Shown here one piece after another: positions 1 to 56,126 of a stretch of 64,000 nt of DNA. A program made the position numbers and the translations under genes. The notes beneath the pieces were generated by a model, which was not told where the DNA came from, ran no database searches, and saw nothing but the letters and a program-made list of their open reading frames with translations. Origin of the DNA: Takakia lepidozioides (lineage: Eukaryota > Plantae > Bryophyta); the NCBI GenBank assembly GCA_030704615.1, contig CM060732.1, positions 8,866,001-8,930,000 of the forward strand, in the 5' to 3' direction. Numbering within the stretch: position 1 is the stretch's first letter; each line of letters starts with the position of its first letter.

Positions 1-3000
1 TGGATCTTCCTCACCATCAATTGTCCGGTCGTTCAACCCCCGTTGAATGCACACATTAATAAGGGCCCTCAGTTCATCCTGCTTGTTTGCAGGTGCCTTA
101 GAAAGTAAGAGGTTGAGCATTCGCTTGGAGAAGCCATAATTTTGCACATCCATGTTACGTTTAATAGCCGTCCGGATGCATACTATGTGATGCTTGGCTT
201 GGAGAGGGAGAGAACTGAGGTGACGTGCAAGCCGTGCTATCTCTTCCCTCGCACTCCCTGAGCCCTGTCCTTCCAGCCTTTGTAACCGCACTATTTCCTG
301 GAAGACGCAACATTTTTAACACCTAAGCTGCCATCCCTGTATAATAACTGTGGAAGTAAACTTATGTTCCACAGAACCTTCAACCTTCACCAACCACAGA
401 AAGCCAAAGATAAGAGAGGAAAAGAAACCAAAAGTGCAGACCTCGATGCAGGGCTTCTTACAGTAAGCTTAGACCTCAAAGCGAATATTGATTATATGAT
501 GAATTCCATGACTGGAGGTGGAGGATACTTGTTTGTACCTAATGTGACAGATACAAATTTGACTGATGAAGACCACCTTGAAGCCTAAATGAAGTCCAGA
601 CTGTACAGTGCATTCTGCTCAAGGAGCAGTCAATTGTAGCGACGACCAAAACAGAACCAGAGACAAATGGATAGACACGTTACCTGAAGGAGGAGTACAG
701 CCAACTTATACTGTGCACAAATTCGAGCCTGAGGTTTGATATCGGTGCCAAGGGAGAGATCTTTGGCCATGGCTAAGAAGGCTTCATCCAAACAGGACAT
801 GGCATCCTTGAGTTGATTTTGCTCTATGTGAACCATCCCGATCTTAAAGCAAGTGGAGGCTGGTGCTCCTCTCGGAATCTGTCAAGAGAAATCACAAAGT
901 TGACTGAAAAGGATGCAATAGTATATTACTGAAACCAGTCCGACAAAGATTACTTTGACCTTATCAATCAGAATATAGAAGTATTTAAAGAGGTCCATAA
1001 GATTCTTTACTGGTTATGACATCAAGCTAGCGCCTTTCTGATGAAACCGAAGGTCCTGGTCAAAGGATTCTGGATGGGGGTATGTTGGGGTTTAATGTGG
1101 TATATATGAGTGCTCACTTAGCCTCCACACAGGACTGCCAGTGCCAGTATGTAAAAGATCTGCATAGCAAATCTGAGAAGTAATTCCCATGTTGGATAGA
1201 GAGGCATGACTAACTAGTAAGACTCTGCACCAAGCAACAGCACACATGACTGGTTGAGAAGTTTCTGCTTCAAAGCAACAGCATTGCACGAGGAACATAC
1301 CTGCCCAGGCTTAACTGGGCCACTGGTTTGTGAACTAGGACGTGCAGGACCTCTGTTTTGCCTGTCAAAGAGCACCCTTCCTGTTCCATTGGCATGGGCC
1401 CTGCCAACACCCTCAAAGCTACCAAGATCTGCCTCAGAGGATGGGGCCTGGGCATTAACTTGGGGTGGCACACCACCATCTGGCAGACCTAAGCCAGAAT
1501 TAGATGCCTCCTGTGATACCTTCCCTGATTGGTACACCGTCGTTTGAGGAGCAATGACTCCCGCTACATAATTTCCCTGTTGTGGTGGAATCCCACCTCC
1601 AGGGGGAACAAAATTCCCTTGGGCAGGTACCCCGCCTCCTTGAGCCACAAACACAGCTTCAAAAGTAGGCCCTCCTGCGCCTGGGTAACCATACATTCCC
1701 TGCCGTTGTCCACCTCCAGGAAAAGCCACAAAACCAGGTGCTGGAAATGCCTGCTGTCCAGGAAAACCCATTGCAGCAGCCCCTGGTACCTGTCCATAAG
1801 TCTGTGGCTGCTGAGAAGCGGCAAACCGGGTGTCTCCATGGAAAGGAACAATTGCCCCAGGCCCTGGTGTTGTTTCTTTCCAGAAGTCCTCTGGAATCGG
1901 TCCTGCTGCAACTCCCATACCCATCATCACAGGAAGAGAGGGTGCAGATGTGATGGGTGGAGGAAATGCTCCAACAGGCTCAACCACCATGTCCTGGGAA
2001 CCTCCCCCGAAACTACGCCGTCCCCCAAGCATTCCATCCCCTAGCTTGAACTGGCGGGTGGCCTCCTTCAGTGCATTAAGGTCAACTGTATTCCCAGATA
2101 CTGGTTTTGCATTTATTTTTATTTGGAATTTTTGTTTGGTACTCTTATTGACTGATTCGTCCTCATCGCTGCTGCTATTATCCACACCATACATCCCCTT
2201 CTTAAATTCTTCAGCAGCACGGGCCTGCTCCTCTGTTTCATTCTCACCATTGGCGGCCCGTCGACTCCCTCCCTTGCTGCCAGAAGCATCCTTGATGCTG
2301 CCAAACCTGCTGAGGGGTCCATCCCCTGATGCTTTGGACGAATTTGATGGTGACTTTTCGATCCCATTTTCTCCATTCGTGCCTAAGGCAGTACTCCACA
2401 ATACCCCAAAAGACAAGAATGATGAAAATTCTGACACATTAAGAAACTTATTTTTGCGTTGAAGTGTTGCAGACATCAAAACCTTAAAACTCTGCATGCA
2501 TCAAGATAGAAAAATTTAGTAGTATAGAAGAGATTGTACTCATAAGACGTTGTTTGCCGTAGCCTTGTGGCCATTGACCCCGCGCCCAGTTTAGTAGTAT
2601 AGAAGAGATTTAAACTCACAGGCAGCTCACCTGACCCAAACCTTCGCACAAGCATGTCTTCCCGGACTTCCACCACTGTGCCTCGGCCTCTCAAGGTCCC
2701 CAAATAGACACCGATATGGTCAGGGGTAATGGTTGGGATTGCACCATTGGCTGTTTTCATGTACGCGGTGACCTCGCTTGAAAGTTCCCAGCCACGCATG
2801 TTTTTGGAGTCTGGTACAGTTTTGAGTTCCCAGTTGCCACCTCCCCACTCAGGTCCCTTGGGGGCCATGTTCTCTGCTGCAAGATTCACAAACATGCCCC
2901 CTTGGCCCCAGCCCGATGATTGCACACTTAGAACTTTCTCACACTGACGTTGAAGCTCTGGGTTGCCACCTGCCTCTTCCAATATCTGGACTAACCGCCG

Positions 3001-6000
3001 CAATGCACTTGGGTTCAGATGGCACAGGAACAAGTCTAGCATGCTCTCGAAGTCATGGACCACTTCAAACGTTTCTTTTGCATGATCAAATGCCCCATAA
3101 CTGCACCCACAATCAGCACATGTTAAGACCATTCTCTCACCCTTATACTGTTTTTCCCACTCTGAGTTCCCATGGAGTTTGATCATTGCTTCTTTTTCTT
3201 TCTCTCTCTCTGTTTCTAACCCATGAAGTGTCCAAAGCCCCATGTCTGTTGCCATGAAATTGTCTGATGAAAATGAAGTTAGGCAGAAAACTTCCATGAA
3301 CTTGTTTCCAGTCTGTGACATGGGGGAGGACATCATGGATGACCTCAAGGGTCTACCCACTCTCGGCACTAGACTGAAATTTAAACTCAGGGCAGGAAGC
3401 CTACCTTTGAACAGCAAACAGAAGCAGAGAGGAAAGGGAGAGTGCAATTGCCCGTTGTGTGGGCAACCTGAAGACAATATTCATTTCCTGATTCACTGTC
3501 CGGGGTTCTCTCACCAGAGAGACGCTCTCCTCAAATCTATCAAGGGAATTGTGCCTGTACCTCTGTTTACCAACTTTGAAAGTCTCGAGGCTGAGCCAAA
3601 AGCCCAGGCCCTTCTGGGGCCTAGTCATTGGGCAAACCACACACAGCAGATTGATGCTTGTGTGAAGGGATTTCTAGACGATATCTGGAAAACCCGGATC
3701 AATGCTTTATACCAAGGTACGTCTCACTACCAACGTCAGCCCCTGACAGAGGTAGGTTCTGTCCCTTTGTGTTCCGCTCAAACTGGGCGCGGGGTCAATG
3801 GCCACAAGGCTACGGCAAACAACGTCTTATGAGTACATTCTAACCCAGGAAGTCTACCGCAAGCAAAGTCAAATGAGTACCTGTGAGACATCTCTTACAA
3901 GAAATTGTCAGCTTGTCTTCTGTGTTCCTGGGTACCTATTTTTGACCCTCTCAGGAGTTCTATCACAGATCTCACTCAGTGTGCAAGAAACGGACCAGCT
4001 GCACAGAGGTCAGCATGGTGTCTTGGTTTAACTTTCATACATCTAGCTTTTCCAGTGTGAAAAGAGAGTTCGTCTGTGTGCAAGTCATCATGGTGATCAG
4101 TTTTACATGTCTGAGGGGGTTAGTATCGTACTTTATACAAGCACGTCCAAGTTCACGGAAGCGATGAAATAGGCGAGTTGCTGGAGGGCAGCGCGGATAG
4201 TCACGTGAACGCAGAAACTCGTCCTTAAGGATGGATAGTGCCGTTGTAAAACGGCGGGCCCGTATGGCATACTGACACCGTAATTCCTGCACACATCGCT
4301 TAATATTGCCACTTGTTGCCAGCAATTGAAACTCGAAATACCCTATGCCAGCAAGTATAGCAAAGCATTCTGAACAAAAATAAAATGTTTTCTGATTATT
4401 CAGCCACAACATACAGATCGACTGCACAGCATTCGGCTAGAGCGCAATCAGCTTGATGAGGCTAAATGAAACTCTATGCAAATTGTTAACATAGGCTTTC
4501 AAGTTGATCCTTACCTGTGTAAATTGTGGTCCTGCTTGTGCAAGCTCAACTGCAAGCTCTGCACAGACTGGAGCCCCATTCGCTAGGGTATCAAGTGAGC
4601 GAGGGGTCACACGCAGGCTGTCAAATCTATACCGATGTAGCAAACAAGCAAATTAGTTGAAACCAATCTAGATGGGGGGATACATATTCTCTTTAAAGTT
4701 CTTGTTCACAACACTTAATTACCTTCCAGCAGCATAGGATCTCACCACTAAGTCTCAAGGGTATTCGACTGAACACATTGGGGATTTTCATGTAGCAACC
4801 CAAGTTTAGCTCACGTTAAATGTCATAGTGTATTCACTTGAAGTATCTCATGAGCTAATAAAAAAAATTCAAACAATTTTATTTCAAACACATCTAGAAC
4901 ATCTGGGCTCCATTTACACAGCAAGAGAAGAGTGTGCCCCGTGAATGGGGCAAGGACATTGCGACACACCGGGAGGTAAGCTGGTACATGATCTCCAAGA
5001 GATCAAGCTTCGGTTCAAATACGAGGTGCATAGTGGTCCAGCCAACTAGTAGCGGTTCCAATAGCCCAATGAGCCGAGTCTTAATCTCCACGCCCTGCTT
5101 TTGCCTCGGGTTGGGATCATTGGTGCATGCCAACAGCAACCGATCATTCAGGGCCCCAACCAAAGCTGCAATCATGCCCACAGTGACAAACATTCTCTGG
5201 ATGTAGCTGGTATACTTCTAGAAAGTTGCTTCACAACAAGTCCATCACATCACCTTTACCTGTACTGCATTCATTGACATAGGCCTTCAATAGCCCACAA
5301 TCGGCCTCTACCCACATAAATATAGCCCCTACGCAGCCTGTTTTGTCCAGAAACCTTGCAGGTATTTTATTTGAAGTGGACCAAATAGGTCACCCAAAGA
5401 TTCATACATGCTTTTCTCTTACCCTTTGCAGGTTTTTCATTTGATGTGGACCACATAGTGTCTGTTTGAATTGCCATGCCCAATGTCTCATAAACATTTT
5501 CTCTTACCCTTGGAAAATACTGGTTCATTTCACATAATTGGTCCACTTGAGAGGATTGCAGTATTTACCATACTGTGCACAGGGCTTGTCGTCATTGGGC
5601 TCAAAGGTAGAGGAGAAAATTAATGTCAGAAGATATGGGGGTATCAAGATGCCAGGCCACAGAACTCAAAATGTTACAGCAGTTGTACACCTCCCTTCCT
5701 CAATTGGGGAACCTTTAGTCCAATTCATTAGGATGAGAGTCCTCATTCTCAAGAATAAGATGTGATATCTCAGCCCCTCCATCTCCCTAGACACCATCAT
5801 GGTTCTCAAGTCAGAATGTGGTTACGCTGTCTGACCTTGACATGCTCTCATTGTGAACATCAAGTGTTGCACCCAAATACTGGAAGTTAGCAAAGCACCA
5901 CGAGCATTAGGACTCTCTCACCAGCATTTGGGGTGCCAATTGTCACAAGGGGTCGAGCTATTCCATCCCACCCCAACACAACCACCGATGTTGCTGTTGA

Positions 6001-9000
6001 GTAAAGCAGTGAGGGGCCCACCCACATCAGCGATCTGAAGTGCTTCCAAGTCAAGAAATGGCAAAGAGGCGAAGAGAAGAGACCCCGACCATTTGACAGG
6101 GCAAGCAAAGATGGGGTGTGATAGGTAGCACCGCATCCATGGTCTTCAACAGATACAAATTGCATAAGCAAAAACAAACAGAGACTTCAGATCTATACAG
6201 AAAGTAAGATAAAGGATATTGGAGGGTAGCCTTTGTCAAATGTGGCAGAGCTGCTTGCTAGAATCTCTAGATTTGATGACATGATCATCACTCGCTGTGT
6301 GGTCAATATTCCAGCCACTTGCCCGCTTAGAGTCTCTTGCCAACACACCTGCACTTAAGTTTGGAGTGTAATTCAGTTATGTTACTCAAATCTGTGCAAG
6401 TAGTTGTTTCTGTTTGAAGTTTGGGGAAAATGTATGTCAAGGATATGCTAAGAAGATGATGATGAAGGAGACTTGTTACCTCCTATTGCGTCCAGAGGGC
6501 CTATTGGGACACAGTAGACAACAGAGAACAAAAAAGCAAACCCAAGAGTTGCAAGCAGATCAGCTGCTTAGCACTTCTCCATGATGAAAAAGAAAGAAAT
6601 TAATCTTTTTAAGTTCACAACCGCATTACCTGAAGAACACTCTCCAAGGGGTGAAGTTTCACAAAGCGGCCAACTTCTGGTGTTGTAGGAATACTCAGCT
6701 CACCAGAAGTAGTATAAGCATCAGGAAACACCCTTGCTAGCCCAATGTGGCTTCCCAAACAAACGTACAATATAGTTGCCTCTGTGTACCATCACACAAT
6801 TCAAGTTGGAGACGATATTGCACAGCAATGCATCACAACTTCAAGGGTTAAAACCCCACTGAAACGGCAAGATTTCACAAGAGATTTCTCTACCATTCAC
6901 CTTCAACAATCTTCGAAGGATGATGGGACAAACCCCAGGAAGTCAAAAAGCTGGATAGTTAAATAGTGTTTTACGATGAAGAACAAAATAAGCCTTTGCG
7001 AGCCACAACCTCTGTTACACCATCAAAGATATGCGTTGAACCAAAGATTGCTACTTCAAAGTATCTAGGACAATAGCCCATAAACTCGATTAGTCCCATC
7101 AACCCGTTGGTACCCAAGGGTTGAAATAGATCAACAGCGCACATAGCACACCTGTAGGTGATGTAAAAATCCGCTGCACAGGCGTGTCAAATGCAAACTG
7201 CACTGGCCCTCGCTGCCCTCCAATTTCCAGGGGTTTGCTAACAGGCACCGGGGTTGGCTCTGAGAACTCATTCTCATCCAAGACACCATTTGAACCATTG
7301 ACCTCCACACTATCCAACATTTGCCCTGATGTTATCAAGTTTACATCTTCTTCAATGAAATAAAGAACCAGCCCCACACCATCATCATCCAAGATAGCAT
7401 ATTGGTTCTCGCCATAGCCAACAAATGCACCATCACTACCTGGCATCAGGCAAACATAGCACAGAGTGTGTGAGGCAAAGAATGAACGATGGGATGGTCC
7501 AGTCCACTGGTTGGGTGAAAAGCTTATCAAATACACATACCCTCGACCACCTCGACACTGGTCACTTTGTTGCAATGGTGTTCTCAATTTTTCATCACCC
7601 TGGGTCTTTGGTTGTACCTGTAATAGTATTGACCCGCTCATTCACCGTGTGCTTGCCAAGGTTGTCACGATAGAGAACCACCTCACTGGTGGCACCCCTG
7701 CACTCAAAGAAGATAAGGAATACATGCTGCTTACTGCTGTACAGCATCTGTTTTGGTACCCGTTCGTTTCCTCCCAAAGCCTGCCATGAACACCAATTAT
7801 CTATAAATCCTCCTAATACATGTGAAGATATGTGCAGAGCGGACAAAAATTTGCAGAACGCTTGGCCAGATCTCAGTCGATGCAGGTAGTAGACGATTTT
7901 CTTTTGTTTAGGCAAGGGCCCTTCTTTCTGACTGGGCCACGGCAAAATCTATTTGTTTCTTCACAACTAACTTGCAAAGTCAACCCTGGAGAGCAAGAAC
8001 TTTCCCTGGACTACAGTTCGAAACAGCACATCTAAGTGAGTGTTTGTCAAATGAGGATGCAAGGATGAGCGTCAGACAATGTCCTGCCTACGACAATTTA
8101 TCCATGAAACACATACGCTCACCCATCATACCATATGCCACTATGGCTTCTGGTCTACCGGAAAAGAGGATACCCAGCCAGACAATAAATGATGCCTTCA
8201 GAAGACAGGAAATGTACCGTGGGAGACAGTTTCTTGTAAATATTGTAATCCCCTGATGAGAGGTTGTAGGCAGTAAGGTTGCAGCCGTCCATAAAGAAAG
8301 CTCTGACTGGGTAGTTAAAGATCCCGTGCTCTGAATTGAAAAACTTGAGATCTTGCTGGAACGGCTGAAGGTCAAACCAACAGGCAGAAGAAAGAAAGAA
8401 ATGGTTATCTGTCAGAACCAGAAATTGTTGCCTGGAGAGTCTGTGACCAAATGAGGTAAGCAAAAGAGGTAGATAAGTTGTTTGACACTCAGATATCCAG
8501 ATCATCAAAAGCCACTGACAAAAATTAGAGCCTGGCAGGCAAAATTCCACAGTCTTCAAAAAAACCTATGGAGTCTGTTAGTAAAAGACCATTGAATATT
8601 TGTAGGCTCCTTTGGTTGCACAAATTACGGTAACAGACTCCTATATGCACTTGCTAGCTTACAAAGGACTGTGAAGATTCACTTAGCACTCAAGTAAGGT
8701 GAAAAGAGGAACAGATTGAAGTGCTACCTGGCAGACAGGGATGTCACGCAAGGGATGTCCTGGGTCCGCAACAGTAAGCAAGGGAAGTGTCAAAATAGGG
8801 CCACTCCTCGCTTGCCCTTCTAATGTATTCTGCACAACCATTCCAGCCCCAAAAGCGTGTCCTGCAATTTAGCGAGGATTCCCCTACTCCCAAAAAACAG
8901 CTCTCACTCTCTCTCTCTCCAACCCAGCTACCCATCAGAGGTCTACTCCAAAATCATTCTCGGTGAAGACAGTGAACATATGACACCAGTTATCTTCCAG

Positions 9001-12000
9001 TGAACGATGGCGGTATTTTTTCAACTACATGTCAGCACCTGTTGGTATTTGTGAGTACTACCTCATACTCAATAGTGAAAAGTGTAACCACCTACTGCAG
9101 AGTAAGAATCTCTAGTCCACTAATAGACGTGTATCGGAATGTAGGAGGGAAACCCATCATTTTTACTTACCCCATAGAGAAAGGCTTTCCTTGCCAGGTC
9201 TGAAATTGTCAGTTGAGAACCCCTGCCACAAAGCATGAATAACACACAAATACCGTCGTGAGACCCAAGTGCATTCATGGCACTTTCCTAGAGTATCCCT
9301 GAAAACATTGGGAGCATGATCAAGCTCTCGGACCTTCCAACACTTCAGTGGCCAGCTTGAATCTACCAGATCTTTAGACAGGAATCAGATGCATGAGCAC
9401 CATAAGAATTATTTCCATATCTTGTTCCTTGATGGTGTTGAGCAGTCTTCCAACTAGCGACTACTAAGCCACTTGGTTGTTTGAGGAAGCCTGCTAATCC
9501 TAATCAGTGGCCATCACTTCAAACCTCACCATGGTCAAAGAATAGGATATTGGCAATGCTTCCTGCCTAGAAGAATTCCAGCACATGCAGTCTGTAGTGA
9601 TGTAACTTTGAAAGAAGCATGCAATGAAATGAAGAATGTTACCCAGTCTGGGCTCTGGCTTGCTGCAACTGCAACTGGTGATCTGGTAGAATTCCTGCAG
9701 ACCCTAGCACTGCCAGCTTCTCCTTCAGCACTGAGCCTGTCACATAACCAAAATTAAAAGTGAGACTTTAAATGAAAGCCACATCCCAACCCTATTAGAA
9801 ATGGTCCATTCTGAGTAATTCAGCTGGTCAGACTCACGTAAGGGACGAACAATAATTTCTGTGCTGACAAAAGAGTTCCAACCCAGACAACATCAGCCCT
9901 CAGACCAAGTGCTCCCTCCCAAGGGCTATTTGGCAACTTCTCAGTCAGTTCTCGCACTATATCAATAAAACAGCCACACCTCCTGAGGCTACACTTTCTC
10001 CAGTGCCCACCTCCCAATATGAGAGTGGGTACCATTTCCTTTTTCCTGTCCTACATACTGTGAGATCAGGGGCATACACTACACTTCTTCTCTCTTTCTA
10101 TTTTCTTTTCCCTTGTGTCCCATAGGCCCTTTGGGTGTCCTATTTCTTTTTTTCGTTTCCATCTTTAATCTTTCTCTCTATAAAGCACGTTATAAAGCAC
10201 CATTTCATTTCATTTCTCTCTCCCTCTGTATGCCTTGCACATTCCTAGTTGTAACAAAGGAGACAACTTCAGAGCTGGAGTAGTAATACGTGCCTGGAGA
10301 CCCTCGTGCACTCTGCAGCACTGAGAACAGCTGCCTCCTGGACTCCCTAGATACAGTCCCTGATCTTCTCCTGGCCTCCTCCCCACCACCAGCCACATTC
10401 TAGGGAAGAGAAGACACCCACCCACCAGTAATATCACAACACAATTGTTGCTGATGGCAAACACTTCTGCTTACTGGATGCACCTGGGACATCAGCAGGC
10501 ATAGCACTTTGCTTCTAACATCCACAACAAACAGCAGGTTCGCCGACCATCTCCACCCAACATGTCAAAGCTGTTGGAAGGAAACCTGGATCTTCTTGTG
10601 ATCCGAAGTGCATATTTAGCGTGTGAGAAAGGATAAGGTCACACAGATGGTCACACGACTTACAGCAAATAACACCGATGCAAGGTTTAACTTGGGATGG
10701 ATAATGAGGTCCACAACTCTGGGCAACGGATACACAGCACCCCCTCCAACCTGAGTAAGAATGCTGGACACATCCATTGCTTCTACTCCTGCATCCATAC
10801 CCAGCTTGTCACTCAACATGATAGGATGTCGAATCTGCAGCCGGTGCCAGCATTTTGCCAGCTGTGTGATGCTCCAGACAACAAGAACTCCGGTTGAGCT
10901 ACATAAGAAGCATTTCCCCTTACAGATACTGCCCCCTGTTGAGGGTGGGCTGTATGTGGGTGAAGACAGAATAGTCAAGGGCTCTCAAGGGGTATACTAT
11001 GTATATCTGGCATAGTTCTTGGTTAACTTGTCCAACGGGCCTTGCCCCCCCCCCCGCCCTGCTCTCTCTGCCTGTGGACATGTCAGTTTTTCTTTCTTTA
11101 TTTCTCTTCAACGATCCTCCTGGGGACACAGGAAATCTCTTCTTGTCTTCATCTTGTCTCTATTCTCTTGCTGTATTTACATAGGCACTTTTCTTCGTTC
11201 TCTACTTTCGCTTATGAGCCCTCCAGGTCCCTGGTGGACATTATTAAGTTTTATTTTGTTTCTCTCTCGATGTTTTAAGAGAAAATCTTTATTCTTTCTT
11301 TCTCAGTCTCTCTGTCTTCACACTTAGCACAATTGACAATCCTTATACAAGGGTTGCATGGCTGCTGAGACTCTTCCACAAAGGGAGGTTTGACCAACGG
11401 AATTGATGCAACAACTACAAACGGCTAATATATGAAAAAAATTGCCATGCAAAACCACAGCTTCCAAACTCTCACTTTCCTATCAATGTAGGGATCAAAA
11501 TCAATCTTACTACAACTGAAAGAAAAATTTACCAGCATGTTCAAAGAAATTTGCACGCATGTGAGGTCTATTGGGGTTTGAAACAACGCGAGCCCGCCAG
11601 ACTTGCACTGTTCCCTCCTTAGTGAGGGTGAGCAGCAGCTGTAACATTGAATGCCAGGCAACTGATGCGATAGGGTTGGGCCCAGTTGATATACTGGTTA
11701 CAAAAGCACAAAAACAAACAGGCAAATTAATATAGGCATTCCCGACACCACTCATCTGATGGTTGCCCAAACCAAGCTTCTGAATAGGAAACAGTGTCCT
11801 GCCTACAACACTTCTGTCTATATTGCCATTACACGATACTTTGGAAATATCTTACAAATTCGTTTCAAGAGTATAGGATATACTATTGTTTTGATATCTA
11901 GCAGAGGGTCATCACAACAAACGAGATCTATGCATGTTATTAGGTTGTAGCTTGTCACGGTGAAACAACCCAGCCAAGATGAGCCCCAATACAAAAGTTA

Positions 12001-15000
12001 CTCTCATCAGAGTAGCAGGCTTGGCCAGGTCTACTCTTTTCTGACCATTCAAAAACCAAGTTGGAAATGAAAATTCTTACTCCTTTGTGATTTCCTGAGC
12101 TAAGGAGTCCTTAAACCAGGAAATAACAAACATCATTCTCTCAAACAAAGATGGTACTCACATGCCAATCAAGCTGGGCCGATTTGGGACTGACACATCC
12201 CATGCTAAAAGGGTCCCACTGCAGTCACCCACAAAAACCCATTCCAATGTCGAGTGGAAGGCAAATGCTCCTGCTCCTGAAAGCTTGATGGAAGGATCAA
12301 CTGGAACAGAAAAAATGGACAAGACGACAACCGGGGTCGTGTACTCAATAGCCTGTCTTAGATATAGACAAAAGAAGAGAGAGGAGAATCTCTGCAATCA
12401 AGATCATGTAACATAGAACATGTAACTGGAAAACTGAGAGGCATTGGAGAAGTAGACGTAGACTAGAAGGGACTATAGTTGGAAAATTACATTTACAAAC
12501 TGGCGATGTGAGTGCAGTGTGGGAGGACTCCCTTACTTGGAACTAGACTTACTTTGAAGAGTATACTGCACAGTGAAAGTCTGAATATTGTAAGCTCGTA
12601 CCACCCCCTCTGCATATGCCACATACTATCATCATCCAGCCAAACCCACAAGAAACCAGAAAAGTTAGGCAACCAGTTTAAATTTGGTTGGAGAAAGATT
12701 GACACATTTTTACATGTTCACCAATAAAGAGTTCATAGGGTGCACAACACAGCAATTGAAGTGAAACTTGTGATACCAAACCAAAGCTAGCTAACTTCAC
12801 TCCACAAGCTACAACTAGAGCAGGACTGTGTCATAAATGCCATGACCAACAATCAACCAACAAGCCGACTGGTAAATATATACACAAAGGCAATGAGCAT
12901 TCTAAGCTTTCAATTGAAGACAGAGGTCTTCAATATCAGCTCTAATACCAATATTTTCCGGTAACAGCTTTATCGTTAAACCTCCTGCTCTTTACATGAC
13001 CTGCAAAAGGGTTCATCAGAGAGAATCACCAAAAGAGGGTGCCGTGGGTGGCAAGCGAGTTCGGTGATGGGCTTCTTCAAATCTGTCTTTATCTTTGTGG
13101 CAGCCCTCACACCTTCTACCGTCCCCACCACTGCTCCGGCATGACAACGGTCAAATGATGCAAATACTTCAAAGAACTATAAATTGTATGTGATACATTA
13201 CAACAAGTGCAGAGATGAAGGCAAGACGTAAGTGGAGTGCAGAGAGAGAGAGAAGACTCTGGCCGAAGCCAGCATAAATAAGAGCCACTTCTTCTAGCAA
13301 GCTAGGGACTGGAGTGCAACTAGAGCTCCACATACAATAAATTGTTGTCAGAGCTATACAGATATCAACCCAAGGGGAAAAAATTACCATTCACACTCAA
13401 GCGGCGGTGAGCACCAAAGAACAGCCATGGCCTAAGGGGAGTGAGAGCTATATGAACTTCCACACTGCCTCCCGCAACCTTCTCTGTCTTCTTGTCGACA
13501 GGCGAGTAGAGGACATAGGTTTGCTCTGTATCTAGATCCCAGGACCTAATAGTCCAATCCTGCAGAAAAAGCCACCACCAATCAAAATCCACCAAGTGAT
13601 CTTTTACAATTTCAAAATTTTCTATGGATTTTTGAACACCTACACGTTACGGTTACCCTGCTCTTCCACTAATCTCATTCCCATAATGTCTAAGCAATAG
13701 AGGTGTTTAGTGCACTATCTTCTGAACATTTCATCCAATAACACCTGGTTGCATATACTGCCAGAACCCACAAATCGATGTACAATTGACAAACATCTTC
13801 TTCTCTCGCTCGCACTCTCTCTTTTGTTTACCGTGTCCCATGGGCCCTTTGTTGACAATACAAAGTTTCTCTGTTCCCTGTTCTGTTATAAAGCACCAAT
13901 TCATTTCGTTTCATTTCTGTTCTCTGTCTCTAGGTCGTCTTATGAGTACACTGTTCTCTATCTTCTGCACCTCACATTGATTGCTGACAAAGGCTTTTAC
14001 AGTGTCACGGGCAATTGCAGATTTAGTTACCACATTCTGTATTGAGACAGACAAATGGGACAATACCTCCTGAGGAATCTGCCCAATTTGCATCACTGGC
14101 AAATTGGAGACGAGATGTCTTATTTTCATGCCCTGCGTACTAAAAGATCCAGAGCAGAGTGTTGCTGTCTGCTTACTGATTCTAAATCCTTGGAGGAGAC
14201 CTGAGGGACTCTATGTTTTGGGTGGTTTTCATGCATAAGGCAATATGCCTCTGTGACAGATGTTCTTTCGTGTCGTTATTGTTCTGTGTTGATTTATTTC
14301 TGTCCCCTTGGCCCCTTGCGCCTGCTTCCAATGTAGTAGATATCTTTCCCATGGATGTTATCAAGTTTCTCAATCACCCTCTCTCTAATATACATAGACG
14401 CCATGTGCGCCAGTAAGAGAAGAGGTTAATTAGTCATAACCTCAAGTACAGCAACAATAACATGGCCTCCAGCTGGGCTATAAGCCATGCGTACCACCGT
14501 CGCCCCTATGTCTATGCTTGAGAGTCTGCATCCTGTCAACGCATCAAACTCTGCCAAGTGCACCAGTAGAAACACAGGAAGTAAGACCACAAGTAGCCAA
14601 GAGCATCATAGACATCTGTCATCTCCAATCCCAGAAAATGGTGTGATGTTTAGCACGTCGAAAGAGTATGCTCTCTAACAGACTCCTGGTAACTGAATTA
14701 ACCAAGATGTAAATCTTCCAAGGTATTCAATTTTGATCAAGGCTGCAAGTTTGAATTGTGTCACCATCTTGAAACAAAACAAGACTCAAGATATCAAGAG
14801 TTAAGATAGTAAGACCTTCAGGAAGTACCCCAAGCAAACAGGTTGCAAGCTGTGAGTACTATCAAAAAGATACCCAAGCTTCAATTGAAGTTCACAGACA
14901 TAACTTTCTCAGGTTCAAGCTGCTTGAAAGTTCTAAGAAGCTCTTGTAACTGTCTGTCCCTAATGTTGTTTCTCTCTCTCTTGCTTTGTGTGGTTTCACT

Positions 15001-23314: not shown

Positions 23315-24246
23315 GACGTCCCTTCCTGCTCCCACCGTGCACGCCTCTCATGCGCTGCTACCTCGCCTCCATGCCCGATTTGCAACCTTTCTCTTCTCAC
23401 GATCTGCGCAAGCCTCCAGTACTGCAAACTGATGAGAGATGTTCTCCCTACAGTGGAAGATTGTACAAGATCTGATGATCATCCCCCCGTACACACACCC
23501 CCTGCTTCTTCCCCAATCAACCACACTCTTTCTTAACACTTAACACAATCAATCTCTCTCTCCTCTCCTTTCATTACACACATACGTCCGAAAAATACCG
23601 GGAAAATACATGCGCCTGGTATGTATACCTCGCTAGGTGTGTAGGTAGGTAGGTACCTAACAGTGTTGAGAGGGTTTTAGATTTTTATTTTTATTATTTT
23701 TATTTATTTTTGGGGAACAGGGGGATTGTAGCCCTGTACACTTTATTAAAATGATAAGGAAAAAATAACCCTACAGATTGCCTTTGAGGCTAAGAATTGA
23801 GGTGCCACTCCGATCCAAAAGCAACACTAGTAGAGGAGAAGAAAAGGCAGAGAGAAACAACTACAGGAGCTTAAACAATTGTAAGCTGCAAGGAAACAAG
23901 AAGGAGAAAACTGAGATAGAAAAAGGGCAGTTGAGAGAGCTGCAGCTAAAGGCAATCAGAACAAACAGTGGCTGATGCCTATATCTAGTTCCTAAAAACT
24001 AAATTACCAGTAACTATGGCTGGATAGCCACAAGATGTGATAGTGACCATAGCCTCACTAGGTCCTCCACCATTGTCCCTACTACACTCAAACTCAATAG
24101 ATCAAGAGGCCGGGTACAAGAGTTGCCCCATCGTTAGTCGCCGTCTTGCAACCTGTGAACTTGAGCTTGAGATCTTGGGTATTGACTCCTATGAGTTTGG
24201 CCTCCCATGTCTTATGAGCTGCCACTAGTCATATCCACTACCACTA

Positions 24247-25989
24247 TCCCAAGCAGGGTGGACATATCAATCTCCATCAGGAACCCTCTCAAGAGGTGGT
24301 GTCAAGCTTCCCGTGTGCCAACCTCTTGAGCATCGATCACACACAAGCATAGTGGCGGCACCACGAGCATGCCCACATAGCATGCAATGCAATCCTGCAG
24401 GTACCACTGCAAGGTTGGGATCTATCCTCCCATCCACATGTGGAAGGTGACATGGCGCACAATTACGCACATGGTCCTTCCATACCATGCCATCTCGACC
24501 CTCCAGAATCAACACTCCTGAAGGCAACACCTCCCTGACCCTTAGAATCACACGTCCTGCTGTGACATCCAAGGTCATAGGCGATGTCTGCTGCAGATAC
24601 ACATAGTCCCCAGGGTGGAAACACCGAACACCTGGCCAATATCCCCCTCCACGTATAGTGACATACCTCAATGTCTCGGTGTTGGGCAATAGCAAGATTC
24701 TCAAAAGCCATAGGCATGACTTTCTTGAACAACTCTACCCGCTGGGCACATGCTTGTGTCCACACATCCGGATCATCAAGGTTGAGGACTATTGCAGCCT
24801 CCTTGCGAATAGATGCAGACAAATCTGGCTCTCGGCCAAAGAGAAGGAAATATGGTGAGCAGGAGGCAAGTGATGCTTGCTTGCTGAACCTGTAGCCCAT
24901 GGCTAACCAAGGTACCTGAAGATCCCAATCTCCTAGGTGTCCCTTTTGCAAGCCATACTTGCGCAAACCCATCTTCACCGTCTGCACCACTCTCTTTGCC
25001 AAGCCATCGGCCTGAGGATGATCCCGAGAAGTGGTATGGTGGTCTATCAAGGCTTTATCACACAAAGCCTGAAACTCCCCGAAGAACTCTCTCCCTTGGT
25101 CTGTGAGTACCTCATTCGGAGCACCGAATCGGCTAAGCACATGATCCAGGAATGCATACGCAGCCCCCTCAATAGCCTTGTCAGGCAATGGAACCAACTC
25201 AATCCACTTGGAGAAGTGCTCCACCATCACCAACACATATCTATGGTGACGCATCGTCAGTGGCACAGGCCCTGCAAAGTCAAGACTCCACCTGTAGCCC
25301 AATCCCATGATGGGTAAAAGATGCAACTGTGGTGTAGGGGCGTTGAATGAAGCACGCACCTTGTCACACACCATGCACCTAGCCACGAACTGTTGCACCT
25401 TTGTGTGCATACCACGCCACCAATACTGCCCCTGCAGTAAACTATGAGTGCGTCGCACTCCAAAATGCCCCAACTCCTCATGGGCATGCCGTACTAACCG
25501 TGCACGTTGTGTTGGGTGAGGCACGATCCTCACCCGACCATCCTCCCACACTCGAAGCAGGTGTATCCCCTCCCACTTGAACCTCTTGGCTCGTTGTAGG
25601 ATCCGATCCCTCTCATTGGCAGTCACTCTAGCTGCCGTGTCTCCAGTGCGGAGGTAGTCCAACACAACCGAATCCTCATGTATATCTCTGGCACCATCTG
25701 GCTCATCACTAGCCTCAGGGTCCTCAGACACTCCGTCTACAGTCATCCCTGTTGTAGGTCCAACCTGACCTCCCAATGCCAAGATACACAAAAAGGTAGA
25801 TGCATGCCATCCCGGCACCATCTCCTCGTCTGTCTCACCATGCCACCGAGCTCCAGTGTCATCCTGCTGGCTCATGCATGGATTACAACTCAATCCATCC
25901 GTATCCCTATTGACCAAACCCGATCGATGCACAACCCGAACATGTCTCTCATGCTCCTCCACCGTAGCACAAGAGGCAAAGCAATTCAT
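24247..25989 (-). pseudogene. Gypsy integrase (HHCC + DDE) with C-terminal PHD finger, preceded by RT/RNase H remnants
   Basis: AHEELGHFG..RT..C..C; WSLDFAGP; LTDQGREF; HPQADG. PHD CMLC...VCDRCSRGWH..LTPPL.RVPDG.W.CPPC (frameshifted). Confidence 0.88.
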
Positions 25990-26429
25990 GTAAGCCTCAG
26001 GAACCGCCGTATACGTCGTCTCTCTCCTCTAGTGACAATAGGTCCAACGTCAGGCTCCCAATTGCCCTTCGTAACTGCAACCTTAAGTTCAGCAGACTTA
26101 GAGGTAGAGGACGTGTCCCGTGGTTGCTATGCCGCAACCTCTTGAGCAGTACTCCCTGCCTGCTCAGTCAATGACAAAGCCTCATCCTGCCCCATCATCT
26201 CATCCTTGAGGACCTCCTCAACCCGAGAAGAATCCCCAACCTCATCCATTACAGCCGCCTTGGCTGCCAACTCCCTCTGAACCTCGAGCACCTCCCACGT
26301 GTGCCATGGATGTCTACACCCCGTGGTCTTCACCAGCTCGCCCCCACTCACTGCCTGTATAGTCTCGGTAGGCAGAGAGACCGTCAAGGGAAGTGCACTC
26401 CGCACTCTTCGTTGCTCAGCCATAGCCAA

Positions 26430-27375
26430 GCTGATAATCCATGTCAAGCAATTTAGATCCATTGCTTGCCCCAACACCTGACGACGTGATGCCTCAGAAA
26501 GAGAAGGCACCGCCGTGGTCCCAGTGGGAAAACCCATAGCGCTCTCGCTCGTCGGCATTAGGCTCCACTAACTGCTGCAACTGAGCATCCCACAGGAGGC
26601 CAGGTCCGCTATCCCGGAAAGCATGCGATCCTGGGAAGCTGAGCAGTGTAGGTAGTGCTGCTTGTGGTCGACCCACCTTGTTGACCACTGCCAAAGGCGA
26701 ATGGTCATCATGTCTCACACGCTGAGACTACCTCCCTGTGTCCAAAATGCTATCCACTGTGAGGTATGCTGGCCGCTGCACCCCATCAAATGCACGCTTA
26801 AGCAGTGCGGGTGGCATCAAGTTAGTCCACCATAACCATGGACGATGAGCCCATGACCCCACTGTAGCTGCATCCAGCAACACTGCTGACCCAAGCCACG
26901 ACCGGACTTGATGCACACTGGCCATCACCCTGGCCCGAGAATTGCCCATCAGTGGCACATTCTCCAAGTGTATGCTGGAGATACAGCTTGATGAAGCTGT
27001 AAGTGGCACAAAACCTGCACCATCTCCTAAAACAGACCCGACCTCGAGTCTTGCAATCCATTGCCATGCCCGGCTGATGAATGCTCTTGGCAGGGCCAAC
27101 CTGCCACTACCAAATCAATGGAGCCAACCCGCTCCAAATCCTGCACCCCCAGCAACGAAATGTCTCATGGCAAGGCCTGCTGATATCCACGAACTGCAGA
27201 CACCGGCAACAACTCAGGGTACTGCTACACCAACTGAGCAACATGGCGTAGGGAGACGCGTCGTGCAGTCTCATCCCTCTCCACATAGAGGTAACGCCGT
27301 ACCTGTACACCTGTCTATAGAAGAGCAGCCAATCCGGTGCTAATCCCACCAAACAAGTCCAGAAGGCAAATGCCT
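26430..27375 (-). pseudogene. DNMT3-like C5 cytosine DNA methyltransferase domain within the retroelement polyprotein
   Basis: Motif I LLDLFGGISTG; motif II YLYVERD; motif IV DLVVAGWPCQ..S.AG...GLQD.RSGLF; motif VI ENV; motif VIII AHRP.L.WTNL; motifs IX-X ERAMGFPTGTT...SRRQVLGQAMD. Several stops and frameshifts. Confidence 0.85.
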
Positions 27376-27789
27376 TCATCCGGACACTGCCACATGATCG
27401 GTGTGGTGTCCAATGGTGACAATTGAGGTGGACCTGGTGCAATCCCCGCACTGTCCTCCTCTCCTGACGGTACAAAAGCCTCTACACAGGCTTGTTGCAC
27501 CCGACAATCAGCAACCCGTTGCAAATCCTTGCTTGAGCCCCATAATGGAGTGTGAGCAACCATGGCAGGCAACTCCGCCATACCATACATGTCATCCTGC
27601 TCTCCCGGAGGTGACACATCCTCTGAATGAGTGTTGCCATCCAACAACTCTCCAGGTCAAGTCACTGCAGCTGTGAATGCTGCAAGTGTTGGCATCTTGC
27701 TTCGCTGGGCTATCGCAACTCCTCTTATGAACGTCACAGGGAGCTGCACACGCCAGCCCTCCCCTGACTGCCATTCAGGCCTATAGGAA

Positions 27790-28110
27790 GCTGACTCCTC
27801 CCAAAAATCCAGGGTGAAGCCCATGGGGTACAACACTGCCCCACCAACAAGGACATCGTATGAGACCGCGTCTGTCACAATGGCCTTGGCTCTCATCACT
27901 GAGCCATCTGTAGGATGATCCGGCTATAGTTTGATAGCCAACTCACGTCGTGTTATGCCCCGAACCTACTCTGACCCTCCCAGAGATGTCTGTATCTGGA
28001 AAGGGCACGGCTCCATATCCGCCTCCGTGAGGCCCAAGCCTGCAATAGCAGCTCTGCCCAGCATCAATGGCTGAGCTCCCGAGTCCAACAAGACCCGCAG
28101 TGGCCGGTAC
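27790..28110 (-). pseudogene. Retroviral-type aspartic protease
   Basis: RVLLDSGAQPLMLG ... YDVLVGGAVL. Confidence 0.8.
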
Positions 28111-28729
28111 CTCTTGCCTGCCGGTCCACTCAAACAGAAAATGCCATCCTGGTTGTTTAACATGACAACTCCAGGTGTCACCATGGCGCGCTCAATGGCT
28201 GGCCTAGCTGACAGCTCCATCAACCTAGCAGCTGTAGCTTGCCATGGCGCCGCCGTGGCAGTCTTGACCCCCACATCCGAGGATCCCTCCGGCACTACAC
28301 CTCCCACTATCTCCGCAGAAGATGAAGTAACCTCCCCACTCTCACATAGTGTAGCTGCTAGCTTGAACACCTCAGCTGGTCTTACCCCCGGCGTCGCAAT
28401 CATGGTAGCCAAGAATAATGGAGCCTGGCACATAGCTGTGGCTGCCCCCAGCAGCACACTAGCTGCCGTAGCCTTGGCAACACTAGGTAGTGGTGTTGCC
28501 CGTGTAGCTCTCCCCAATGGCATAGTAACCTCCGCCTCGGTAACAGTCGGGCGAGAACTAGGTGTCATGGACGGCGTCGACATTGTCTCCGCCAATGTGA
28601 ATGACTGAGGAAGCCTGGCCTGACGGCTTGCCTCCCCACGCTGTGGATCCAACTCCACCTCCGCACCCCGTGGCTCAGGAACTTGTGCTGCTCCTCGAGT
28701 CACTGCCGCAGCTGACTCCACTTGCACTA

Positions 28730-30396
28730 GTGGTAGTCATGCCCCGCACATAGTGGTAGTGGTAGTCCTGCCCGGCACTAGTGGTAGTGGTGCCCCACCC
28801 ATAGTGGTAGTGGTAGTGGCACCCCTCACTAGTGGTAGTGCTGCCCCGCACATGAATCCCATGCCTCCTAAGTCTCCTCCCTCAGGAGCAGGAGGTGGAC
28901 CATCCAGCCTTGGAGCCGGTACCACCTGAGCTGTGGCCATGGTAGCGAGCCTCTGCTCTAGCTGCTGAAGCCGGTTGGCCATGCCTTGGTCACCACCCTG
29001 ACCTCCACGTCCTTGGCCATGTTGAGCCTGGCCTTGGCCTGCACCTCGTGTCTGGCCACCTCGTCCTCTCTGGGCTGCTCCACCTCGCCCCCAGCCACCA
29101 TTGTTCCATGGAACTGGCCTGGGCACAACTCAGGGTGCAAACCATAGCACTGGGCCTCTCCATGCCCGTACCTGCCACAATGCCCACACTGCACCTGTGC
29201 AGGCTGTGCCGGTGCCAAACCATTGCCTCCCTCTGGGCAATCATTCTTGACATGGGGTCCTCCACATGTCCAGCACACCACATCCGCCCGTTGTTGGCCA
29301 GCAAATGAAGGGAGAGACCCCTGCATCTGAGGTCCTCTTTGCCCTTCCCTGGGCTTCACCTGAGCCCCCTTGCTACCTTGAGCACGTTGAGGTAGTGGCT
29401 GGTTAGGAGCACCATTACCCCGTGGTGCCTCTTTAGCAAATCCTACCATGACCACTCGTTCCTCCACCATGTTGAGCTATATCTGCTCTGCCAGCAAAAA
29501 CACATTTGCTAAGGTGGGTTGGGCCGCTTGTAGGAGAGTTGCATCCCGCACCCTTCTCCTCAGCTCCTTGTCCAATATCCCGTACCAGAACTGGACTGCC
29601 TGAGCCTCCGTAACCCCTTGGGTTACATAATCAAGCGCCTCATGCAAGTGAAAGCCTCCCTCAAGCTCTCAGTAGGCTTCCGTTGGAACTCTTGCAAGCT
29701 CCTCAACTTCTCTGTCCTCACCCCTTGGTAGTTCCTTCTCAACTCTTCGAAGAACTCCACAACAGGGTTGAAGGCAGGCACCGCCACTGGTGCTGGTGCA
29801 GCAGTACCTTGGGTGGCCGTCGTAGTTGTTGTACCACTAGTCCCACTACTGCTCGTGGAAGCTGCTGTTGTAGCTGCTGCTGCTGGTGCAGCTGCCGGTG
29901 TGGCTGCTGCCCTTATGCCTCTAGTGCCTCTAGTGATGGAGACATAGTCGGGTGACCAGTACATCCTCTACTCCTCGATCTCAACATCGTGCCCCCGCCT
30001 AAACTCATGGTAATCGTCCATGGGCGGCCCCTCAAGAAGCTGAAATAGCCCCTTCCATGCCATGAAAGGCATAAATAGTTGTGGATTGCGCATTTTCTGC
30101 AAGTCACACCAACTATCAAACTTTTGGATAAAATCATCCAACTCAATGGTGCCCACCGCCCCAGAGTACCTTCGTGGCCCCTTGGTGGCTCCATACATCT
30201 CCTCCATCGTGTCCCACAACAATGGCAAGGAAACAACTTGCACTGCCGGTGTGAGTCTTCCTGATTCACAATCCGAATCATAACCTTCCGTAGAAGACAC
30301 AAGAGGTGAAGGTGGCCTAAACCGCACACCTCGTCTCGTATACCCGCTAGTATCGCTAGTGCTCGTACCGGCACTTTCCCCAGCAACTAGTCGCAC
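28730..30396 (-). pseudogene. Gag-like region with two Zn knuckles
   Basis: RYSG...ELDDFIQKFDSWC; FQRKPTESLREAF; CWTCGGPHVKNDC; CGHCGRYGHGEAQC. Confidence 0.8.
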
Positions 30397-30732
30397 CTCC
30401 GTGTTGACAAACTGACACTCAACCGGTCATGAACATGTCTCTAAACCCCTTTCCACAAGGTAACCGGGTAGAGAACCTGATGCGGCTTATGGTTTGGAAT
30501 ACTAGGTTCCTAACATAGCCTGCGCCTGCACGTGCACCTGCATCCACCGCAGGCACTCCTATGGTTGGCTGGTCATCACCTCCAACCTCACCACAGGAGA
30601 AACAAAGATGGTATGACTGGTCATCAACCCAGCCTCACCATCGACAGCATGCTCTAGGGTGGGATCGGCGATAAAGCTCGAGTCCACCACCTATAAAATC
30701 AAGCGCCCACACAAAACTAGCATGGCGCACAA

Positions 30733-31974
30733 TCAAGCCTTAGGCTGATATGGAGGCAACTTCTCAGGCATAGGAGATCCCCGTTGTTTCTTCTCCGGCA
30801 TTTGTATCGCATAATCCTCAGCCATGTCAAAATTCCCGTCCATAGAACCAGATGTATCCAAATCATCTTCCCCCCGTTGGCCGTACTGTTTCCTGACCTT
30901 CTGTGGCTTCTCAGTAAGCTTAATTGGCATACAATGTATGCCAACCATGTCTGGAAGCTTATATTGTAAGATTTGTGTCAACCTCTTTCGGGCAAGATTA
31001 GTATATGCCCGCAGCTCATCATCTGTATAGCTGAGTGGGGTGCCAATGACTTTGGAAAAGTGTAGCCACTTTCTGGCTTCATGCCCTTTGGGAAAGATGT
31101 GGTCAAGGCCCAAGTTCTCCTTGGCCAAGTTCTCCAGAGCAAAAGTAAACCAAGAACGGAGTTGGGGATCCTTCTGAAGCATGATCCTTACATCATACAG
31201 ATATGTGTGTGGTGGAACTGGAGGTAACGTCCAATGCTCCCCACTGGAATAAGTCTGAAACCTCATTTGCATCTTTTGCTGCTCAGTGTGGTAGTGTAAA
31301 ATAAAATAAGTAGCATAATACAGCCCACATCTCATGACCAAACTAGGTACCTCCTTGGTCTTGGTGTAGATGAATCCATGAACAATCTGGAAGGCAATTA
31401 ATTCCTTCAGCATGGTTCCTGCCTCAGACCAATACCGTGCGAAATGGTGATCCTCAATGGGTCAGTCAGTTGGAAGAACCTTAATCCGAGTTGCCACTGG
31501 CAACCAAATGCGTATAATCTGGTAATAGTGTGCCAAAGACTCTGGAGGACTGAATTCTTTCCAAGCCAAATCCATAACAATGGGAATTTGGTTGAAGGGT
31601 AGAATCATAGCCCAATTGTATTCAAGTGCAGCGGGTGTAGTAGGTGGGTTAAAAGAAGCATCACCCCAAACCTCAGACAGTGATTGCTGCAGTGCCATGG
31701 TATCAACACTATCTACCTGGTGTGGCTACTGTGATGTTGTTGCCACAGTCCCACCTGATGTGGCTACTGTGATGTTGTTGCCACAGTCCCTCCTGATGTT
31801 GACAAGTCCTGCACTTCCTGTGCTGAAGATTGACAAATCAAAGTCCTTGCCTGCAAGTAAGTAGCCATGAGCTGTTCCTCAAGAACAAAGACCCGTTTCT
31901 CAATGTTGAAGCTCAAGTCATCCATTTGAGTCTGAAGCCCTTCCACATCCTCCTGCAACTCAGCTATCCGATTA
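30733..31974 (-). pseudogene. 3' part of an unknown gene (coiled-coil start) that was the insertion target of the Mutator-like element
   Basis: Collinear ORF pieces 31764..31974, 31462..31698 and 30733..31413. Begins at the TSD (NRIAELQEDVEG). Internal ~41-bp duplication at ~31720-31795. Confidence 0.5.
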
Positions 31975-35800: not shown

Positions 35801-36564
35801 ACTGGAAATTTGACATAGTCGAGAGCAGCCAGCTCGGAGCAAGAACCATCGAGGTGATGTTGCCGTAGGAGCTGCACAATGGACCGCGTTGGAGTTATGC
35901 TCGAGGGTACATGCGTAGCACCTGCAGAGACGTCCATGTCGGATTTGAATGACCGTGTGGAGGACATGGGGACCTCAATGCACTCATCTTCCTCGTCGGA
36001 AATGTCGAATACGTCCACACGAGAAGCTATGGAGGGTCTTGACGGTCGAGGTCGGGAATGATTATCGTTGCATACCTCTTTGTTGGCACTGGCCGCCTGT
36101 CGGTTTCCCGACTCCTTTATGGATGGTGTGGGCAGCGACTGATTCGGAAAGGGAATGGGCATCCCCACAGCTCGGTACATGATGGTGTCTGATGGGGGTA
36201 CGTGCCATTCGATTCCGCAACCTCCGTCGTTACCTAGCACGACAATGGTCTCGTCAACCTATCCAGGAACATCCTTCTTTTCTTCTTCCAAATAAATTGT
36301 GCCCGGTTTGAGCTTGAATTTGGAACCAATGTAAGTTTCAGTCACTCTGCAAAGTCCTCCCTCGTTTGGGATCCAGGCTCTCCCAAGTTGCGGAGGACAA
36401 CAAACTATAGTGTAGGAATTCGGAGCCATCGAACACCGCACGAAGTTGGCTAGTGCGAGGTTCAGTATAGCGACAGACCAAGGCTCACAGGCACCATCTA
36501 AGTGGATCTGCGGAGTCCATCGACGATTGGAAGTCGCACATTGAAGTGGAAAGTATTGTTTCAA
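32822..36564 (-). pseudogene. MULE-type DDE transposase with N-terminal GCM-like Zn domain and C-terminal SWIM finger
   Basis: GCM-like DGHPW...CAGKLRCLNPAC...CAHC...C...HVGVHCHP. DDE core VMFDH, FMADNAQAN, CGFHWMQS, TNMAESVH. SWIM CNCTDF...CKHLYYV. 83-bp intron at 34253-34335. In-frame stops at 36259 and 33599. True start uncertain. Confidence 0.8.
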
Positions 36565-56089: not shown

Positions 56090-56126
56090 TGTGGACATCA
56101 ACCTTGGAGCGTGGGGGGGGAGGAAA

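Follow-up and report, generated by a model that had tools for sequence, protein, structure and literature searches.

A broken moss Ty3/Gypsy element with a DNMT3-like methyltransferase, and the multi-copy family in which a stop codon usually follows that enzyme

Since 2018 it has been asked why a transposon would bring along an enzyme for its own silencing, and the known carriers are algae that are hard to handle. The locus described here raises the same question in a land plant. A sequence-only reading of the window (the whole stretch of DNA that was analysed, 64,000 nucleotides) had proposed a Gypsy-type retroelement with a DNMT3-like cytosine methyltransferase in its polyprotein and a PHD finger at the end of its integrase. 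The assignment to Gypsy holds, as Gag, zinc knuckles, protease and DDE integrase can all be recognised, and the window copy is a dead, broken member of a multi-copy moss Ty3/Gypsy family. Its parts, together with a neighbouring host gene, are as follows.

24025-30738, minus strand: decayed Ty3/Gypsy element with a DNMT3-like gene, delimited by the domain map and the loose ends of other copies
29450..30207, minus strand: Gag capsid region, frameshifted (tblastn with Marchantia P0005, 55% and 49% identity)
29174..29275, minus strand: two zinc-knuckle (CCHC-type) motifs, CWTCG at 29275 and CGHCG at 29188, aligned to P0005
27765..28196, minus strand: aspartic protease, DSGA at 28085 (PF13650 at only E 0.021)
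26421..27389, minus strand: DNMT3-like C5-cytosine methyltransferase, pseudogenised (PF00145, E 6.8e-9)
26121..26129, minus strand: in-frame stop TAG, then CAA CCA; kept in relatives and fitting UAG-CAR-YYA
25941..26060, minus strand: N-terminal stub of reverse transcriptase (RT) and a post-YIDD remnant of ~33 nt (tblastn, a related contig and alignment to relatives)
24673..25692, minus strand: DDE integrase, HHCC zinc finger and core (PF17921, E 7.2e-16; PF00665, E 5.5e-12)
24244..24392, minus strand: C-terminal PHD finger, frameshifted near 24267 (PF00628, E 1.1e-4)
1..14554, minus strand: host WD40-repeat gene, outside the element (22 exon matches)

The window copy has suffered throughout its length. 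PF03732 reaches only E 0.068 on the Gag region, and tblastn with the Marchantia PR-DNMT-RT-RH protein returned no RT or RNase H match in this copy. The distance from the start of the DNMT to the start of the integrase is 1697 nt here versus ~2904 nt in relatives, two deletions having removed ~1.2 kb of RT and RNase H; a related contig (X12 record 10) has 1281 nt between window positions 25940 and 25974, and the remnant of ~33 nt aligns to post-YIDD residues in three of the four relatives tried. The proposed placement of the DNMT between protease and RT is thus borne out in the window only on its upstream side, where the protease lies; the RT is deleted here and the full arrangement is seen in relatives. 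Both termini are also lost, since other copies extend past 30738 and 24025, and repeat and self-BLAST searches of 21.5-33 kb found no LTR pair in the window copy. Adjoining the broken 5' end is a 242-aa frame of another repeat (30733-31461, minus strand), with no Pfam match and a weak link to SNAPC1-domain proteins, whose score of 0.90 comes with a recognition that falls short of the reliable level.

The domain order in the window and its relatives is Gag-CCHC-PR-DNMT3-stop-RT-RNase H-integrase-PHD, the window RT and RNase H surviving as remnants in the right place. Relatives have the PR-RT-RNase H-integrase order with a DDE integrase, as in Ty3/Gypsy, and in the pieces scanned rve and Integrase_H2C2 matched and no tyrosine recombinase did. 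The integrase end had been read as a PHD finger instead of a chromodomain, and Pfam agrees, with the PHD match listed above and no chromodomain match at the integrase end of the window element. The window finger falls short of the PF00628 cut-off because the frameshift near 24267 breaks it; the PHD of Marchantia P0031 matches PF00628 at E 4.4e-9.

The methyltransferase is likewise recognisable despite its damage. Six-frame translation recovers all six of the C5-methyltransferase motifs originally reported, on the minus strand and in canonical, non-permuted order: LLDLFGGI at 27365, GWPCQ at 27101, ENV at 26964, HRP at 26847, MGFP at 26537 and LGQAM at 26474. They had been thought to escape the open-reading-frame track through stops and frameshifts, and we indeed find the domain divided into three segments by frameshifts near 26968 and 26540-26546 and interrupted by five in-frame stops (27317, 27227, 27167, 27029 and 26730). 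A PF00145 match, whose absence would by the original account have refuted the proposal, was found with the first segment, where E is 6.8e-9 and the score of 36 bits clears the cut-off of 22, while the second and third segments have no Pfam match when scanned alone. The window domain retains the catalytic PC and ENV, and the second arginine of its motif VIII is changed.

The DNMT3-like identity was also confirmed in an intact relative, P0002, whose best sequence match is DNMT3A, followed by DNMT3B/C and DRM2 (profile E 4.7e-23). Motifs I-X are non-permuted and include PC, ENV and RxR, as in DNMT3-type enzymes. The structural model of P0002, built from 97 rows, has a pLDDT of 95.1 and replaces an earlier, poor model of this type from 16 close rows (pLDDT 48.6). 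Compared with DNMT3A the relative's model gives E 2.4e-18 and Z 28.5 (rmsd 2.5 over 273 aligned residues), with HhaI behind at Z 24, so that in sequence and fold the nearest solved structures are DNMT3A/B/C, ahead of DRM2, DNMT2 and HhaI.

Is this a family, and whose? A protein search with the first DNMT segment matches 36 proteins, mostly 60-75% identical, several of which also bear Gag, protease, RT, RNase H or PHD, and among which Marchantia polymorpha, Calypogeia fissa and Sphagnum troendelagicum are named, at 64-75% identity; to the liverwort copies the window DNMT is 70-72% identical. The annotation of Marchantia polymorpha lists near-intact Gag-PR-DNMT frames under hypothetical proteins, and since this liverwort is a genetic model the question posed above becomes testable there. 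Where such copies are annotated, a bryophyte genome can also seem to have more DNMT genes than it does. A metagenome scan yielded 140 confirmed stretches; among the best 80 of these 140, RT lies downstream in 54, PHD in 22 and all eight domains in order in 11, the remaining loci showing early ends, insertions or deletions. These 80 loci were chosen by their DNMT, and near-duplicates are among them. Apart from L033 and L076 they appear to belong to a single Sphagnum-like subfamily; identity to the Sphagnum protein is 68-70% for L005 and L006. A scan of viral contigs gave 49 pattern matches and no relative.

The window's own species contains many DNMT-bearing copies. In contigs of that species (X1) the summed depth over the DNMT is 0.6-1.0 million, like that over Gag and integrase, versus 63 in the flank, or about four orders above it, although summed contig depth is not copy number. 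The host, expected to be a land plant, is a moss: the WD40 gene beside the element is nearest to a cluster holding Sphagnum proteins (82%, one exon), then to Diphasiastrum and Ceratodon, and a FastTree of 16 rows puts it among the mosses (SH 100), on a branch that leaves below the rows of the Sphagnum cluster and Ceratodon. On this one gene, the host is a moss and likely an early-diverging one.

In a full profile search, 269 representatives scored better than E 1e-30; the named sources are Klebsormidium nitens, Closterium, Chlamydomonas eustigma and Cymbomonas, whose proteins are more distant. Streptophyte proteins have the order CCHC-PR-DNMT, while the chlorophyte order, RT-RH-DNMT-INT-PHD, is seen in 47 of 235 proteins; the chlorophyte DNMT sits between RNase H and integrase, and the domain has therefore shifted position within the element. 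Individual proteins of this kind, mostly with a C-terminal PHD, are P0223 (Cymbomonas tetramitiformis), P0225, P0226 and P0233 (Chlamydomonas eustigma), and Closterium proteins read CCHC-PR-DNMT(-RT). In the trees of DNMT, RT and integrase alike, moss elements and chlorophyte-type elements fall apart. The DNMT tree (FastTree, 92 rows) was restricted to retroelement domains, DNMT-only rows being removed except five, and included every third unnamed row of the RNase H-DNMT type, while one such row in four went into the trees of RT and integrase. The DNMT tree places the window DNMT within a bryophyte clade (SH 99), with a Gag-PR-DNMT clade as sister to the bryophyte group and the K. nitens protein beside Closterium, on an unresolved backbone.

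A further feature of this family is the stop that follows the methyltransferase. Of 81 aligned rows, 13 lack a detectable motif X and 14 lack the junction, leaving 54 scorable DNMT-RT junctions, and every one of them has a stop (35 TAG, 19 TAA). The next codon is CAA in 53 of the 54 and is followed by CCC or CCA in all. Counted position by position, a stop occupies the junction codon in 57 of 58 rows; at other codons the share averages 1.1% and peaks at 32%. It is common to four lineages with very different linkers, namely the window, L033, L076 and the Sphagnum-like group, and many annotated Gag-PR-DNMT proteins also stop soon after the DNMT, including the Klebsormidium protein GAQ93235.1 (partial), which ends 12 aa past it. 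The sequence-only reading, which placed the motifs in the polyprotein between protease and RT, therefore needs amending: the methyltransferase comes last in a frame shared with Gag and protease, and a conserved stop ends that frame before Pol continues. At the same time, the relatives P0051, P0219, P0394 and Closterium P0396 have PR-DNMT-RT in one open frame without this stop, and these, together with the chlorophyte DNMT inside Pol, indicate that the stop is not universal and that Gag-level dosage is not needed family-wide.

How, then, would Pol be made? UAG-CAR-YYA is the read-through consensus of tobacco mosaic virus (PMC3542737, PMC2754532), and the window, like L033, reads TAG CAA CCA, an exact fit to this type I signal (PMC3542737), whereas most Sphagnum-like copies have CAA CCC; the full CARYYA occurs in two of the 54 junctions and CAA CCC in 51. 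We think it probable, with good though not overwhelming confidence, that the majority of ribosomes terminate at this stop, with a minority continuing into RT and integrase. A different route, in which ribosomes re-initiate at an ATG further on or Pol is translated from a spliced RNA, draws on the fact that in most of the CAA CCC junctions an in-frame ATG comes next, making re-initiation possible in most Sphagnum-like copies, and on the TAA in 19 of 54. We regard it as unlikely for the family, since an ATG is absent from this junction in the window, L033 and L076, which carry the CCA of the read-through consensus and run on unshifted into RT.

Overall, our preferred reading is that the family encodes a DNMT3-type enzyme at the end of its Gag-protease frame, and that an intact element would pack this enzyme in bulk and methylate its own new DNA copy; we give this a probability of roughly 0.6. 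Under leaky termination the DNMT would be made along with Gag, at capsid-like amounts. The protease might then release it inside the particle, where it might methylate the cDNA, a step for which we put the chances about level.

One rival reading concerns the target. An active enzyme could work for the most part in trans or once insertion is over, on resident copies or the chromatin around them, serving as a self-limiting brake or seeding heterochromatin. Bulk expression with Gag would provide free enzyme for this, the host DNMT3b of a moss performs de novo CG and CHH methylation in heterochromatin (PMC6453930), and a brake on transposition is among the options raised by de Mendoza et al. (PMC5890265). 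Nonetheless, fusion behind Gag and protease should put the DNMT in the particle, and the chlorophyte enzyme, inside Pol beside the integrase, fits cDNA as the target; we consider action chiefly in trans improbable, though not negligibly so.

Less probable still is that the domain is retained for nucleic-acid binding or structure, or for RNA methylation, and not for methylating DNA. In its favour, the DNMT of KnitGypsy-Dnmt3, the element of Klebsormidium nitens, gave no DNA methylation in yeast, a test its authors call inconclusive (PMC5890265). Against it, the 81 rows are almost uniform at motif I F/G, motif IV PC and motif VI EN, the catalytic cysteine being retained in 80 of 81 and the motif VI glutamate in 74 of 79, and C140, E183, R223 and R225 are near-invariant across 97 distant proteins; the modelled fold, moreover, matches DNA-bound DNMT3A/B best. 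The motif VIII arginines are less well kept in the family (57 of 79 and 52 of 78), a loss that resembles CpG-codon decay. Between the window and the Sphagnum-like L006 and L068, the DNMT dN/dS is ~0.09 with dS near saturation, and that of the integrase is higher, at 0.14-0.15, which indicates purifying selection on the DNMT between subfamilies. Among close Sphagnum-like copies the DNMT dN/dS is 0.55-0.84, versus 0.31-0.61 for RT; these values fit decay after insertion and leave recent selection unsupported.

The heavily broken state of the window copy invites the suggestion that a piece of host DNMT3 was captured once, or inserted into the element, in this single dead copy. The original account had itself named one-off gene capture as a possible refutation, but this reading is refuted, as the domain occurs family-wide at constant position and equal spacing in dozens of loci and three named bryophyte genera, and the DNMT, RT and integrase trees all separate moss elements from the chlorophyte-type clade.

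Returning to the preferred reading, we can ask where the pre-methylated copy would go. The intact Marchantia PHD is nearest to the fingers of CHD4, PHF12, DPF2/3, ATXR5, KDM5, PHF21A, BAZ2 and UHRF1, and in 46 of 51 family fingers the residue two places before the histidine is glycine and not tryptophan. Tryptophan at this position is the cage tryptophan of H3K4me3 readers, and the finger features seen here would mark readers of the unmethylated H3K4 tail. The PHD might accordingly be imagined to bind the H3 tail unmethylated at K4 and steer insertion away from active promoters, an idea that we rate a little below even. If true, the landing of the element's PHD in silent chromatin would mirror the reader-writer logic of host DNMT3, and mosses with very many copies could have a second source of de novo methylation. 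Fusions of PHD fingers to retrotransposons are as such already known (10.1101/2021.11.30.470311).

The ends of the element could be studied in relatives. Self-alignment shows A-coding-B-A-B repeats in L044, L062, L066, L068 and L072, and B-A-B in L016, while ten loci end with a single B instead of B-A-B. In none of 26 cases does a B lie upstream of the 5' A repeat, which starts with TG in 21 of 26; A ends in CA, and a purine tract precedes B. The full LTR pair of a Ty3/Gypsy element was thus not found, the relatives' repeats being split as A...B-A-B. Target duplications of 4 bp are exact in six of nine complete copies and have one mismatch in two more. The inner A|B joint reads CA-GT-TG and resembles a 2-LTR circle junction. 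In our interpretation the working LTR would be B+A, and the palindrome where B meets A would be the point at which the inserted copy was cut; the simplest reading would be integration from a circle opened inside the LTR, and the permuted ends point to the use of such circles by an ordinary DDE integrase. That the two LTR ends are joined and the integrase then cuts the palindrome inside the LTR, giving permuted ends, seems to us moderately probable, for these relatives, and cleavage of circle palindromes by integrase has been reported for retroviruses (PMC1905944, PMC1180852). Three loci, L020, L034 and L045, have a single 3' B together with 4-bp target duplications (two exact, one with a mismatch); a single-B form is expected from a 1-LTR circle, from cutting at both internal sites or from B-B recombination.

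The same relatives suggest how synthesis of the DNA copy would start. The 12-mer after A pairs with a site ~25 nt below a TATA-like box in A, and for 16 of 27 copies no other site pairs better; counting any site, 17 of 27 have 11 or 12 paired positions. This resembles the self-priming of Tf1 and Tcn1 (PMC6317226), and reverse transcription is very probably primed by the RNA's own 5' end in these relatives.

The closest known system is KnitGypsy-Dnmt3, with which the moss family shares Gypsy domains, an intronless, non-permuted DNMT3-related domain and purifying selection (PMC5890265); the legend of Fig. 4c of that paper also describes DIRS-like A-coding-B-A-B repeats, as in the Sphagnum-like relatives. 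K. nitens GAQ93235.1 has the CCHC-PR-DNMT order of the window family, and the window DNMT is 37% identical to it (E 1e-60), far closer than to DNMT3A; in the DNMT tree, which has no host outgroup, the K. nitens protein falls with Closterium and not directly beside the moss clade. In the published description the KnitGypsy-Dnmt3 DNMT is placed in the Pol ORF (PMC5890265), whereas in the moss family it is in frame with RT but cut off from it by a stop at all 54 scorable junctions; the moss family has a C-terminal PHD, whereas 'PHD' does not appear in the main text of the KnitGypsy paper (PMC5890265), and it differs further in its land-plant hosts and very high abundance. The moss element is the same kind of element as KnitGypsy-Dnmt3 and probably a relative.

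As the sequence-only reading stated, DNMT-carrying retrotransposons are on record from dinoflagellates and a charophyte alga, among them Symbiodinium and Klebsormidium (PMC5890265). SymbioDIRS-Dnmt3 of Symbiodinium resembles the moss family in carrying a DNMT3-type domain in a retroelement, has A-B-A-B repeats and methylates CG de novo in yeast (PMC5890265), but it is a DIRS element with a tyrosine recombinase, whereas the moss family combines a DDE integrase with TG..CA ends and target duplications of 4 bp. The EpiLTRs of Cymbomonas and Euglena are likewise LTR elements with a cytosine methyltransferase and a chromatin reader, although theirs are a DNMT4-sister enzyme, DAM and a chromodomain in place of a DNMT3-type enzyme and a PHD (bioRxiv 10.64898/2026.05.21.726589). 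Phygy/Selgy and Tcn1 of Neumann et al. (2019) are Gypsy elements that include bryophyte or lycophyte members, Tcn1 being self-primed; a methyltransferase goes unmentioned in the relevant passages of that survey, and the NCGN targets favoured by Phygy are not shown by the eight target duplications of the moss family's relatives (PMC6317226). To be included in that survey, an element needed two intact LTRs as a pair and TG..CA ends (PMC6317226). Elements with permuted ends would likely be screened out by this, and such ends would likely conceal the family from LTR-pair finders in general. Our literature search found no report of bryophyte or land-plant DNMT3-Gypsy elements, although supplements or subscription reviews may list Marchantia; passages of the Marchantia, Physcomitrium and Apopellia papers do not mention them, and two later papers use the term 'streptophytes' in passages where species go unnamed. 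New against the literature covered are land-plant hosts at high abundance, the stop after a DNMT joined to Gag, the PHD, the chlorophyte branch and the proposed split-end mechanism. A wider and more tentative proposal, which we consider possible but doubtful, is that an ancient green-lineage Gypsy clade, spanning chlorophytes, Klebsormidium, Closterium, liverworts and mosses, carries a full epigenetic kit, which in the bryophyte members would comprise a DNMT3 made in capsid-like amounts ahead of a leaky stop, pre-methylation of cDNA, self-priming, integration from 2-LTR circles and an H3K4me0-type PHD.

The window contains several other repeats. Chromoviruses have a C-terminal chromodomain, which the moss family lacks, with a PHD instead; the window's own Gypsy chromovirus (51600-56100, plus strand), with RT, RNase H, SH3-like domain and chromodomain (PF00385, E 3.6e-12) and a CpG ratio of 0.88, is a separate element that lies far off in the RT and integrase trees. 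A LINE with endonuclease and RT frames occupies 15885-21400, its 3' part in a 99% identical inverted duplication (18683-19338 versus 20744-21399), and further LINE 3' fragments lie at 2529-3841, within the host gene. CpG and CHG ratios, considered as a sign of self-methylation, proved uninformative, the DNMT-bearing element's depletion (CpG 0.47) being like that of the LINE (0.42) and the host gene region (0.35). A small AT-tailed repeat ends in 23680-23916, where a contig from a run guessed to be RNA has a depth of 2910 over 23742-23775; this run (X12) contains diverged relatives only and does not bear on expression. A 53-bp repeat is arrayed at 36864-39900, 60787-62900 and 49000-49800, and its palindromic core of 34 nt occurs 89 times. 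Finally, a block at ~34.5-40.4 kb recurs at ~58.3-63.3 kb with 87-98% identity; it includes a 642-aa frame (34330-36258, minus strand) with no Pfam match, adjoining a SWIM-like frame (32822-33598, E 0.062), and is probably a DNA transposon.
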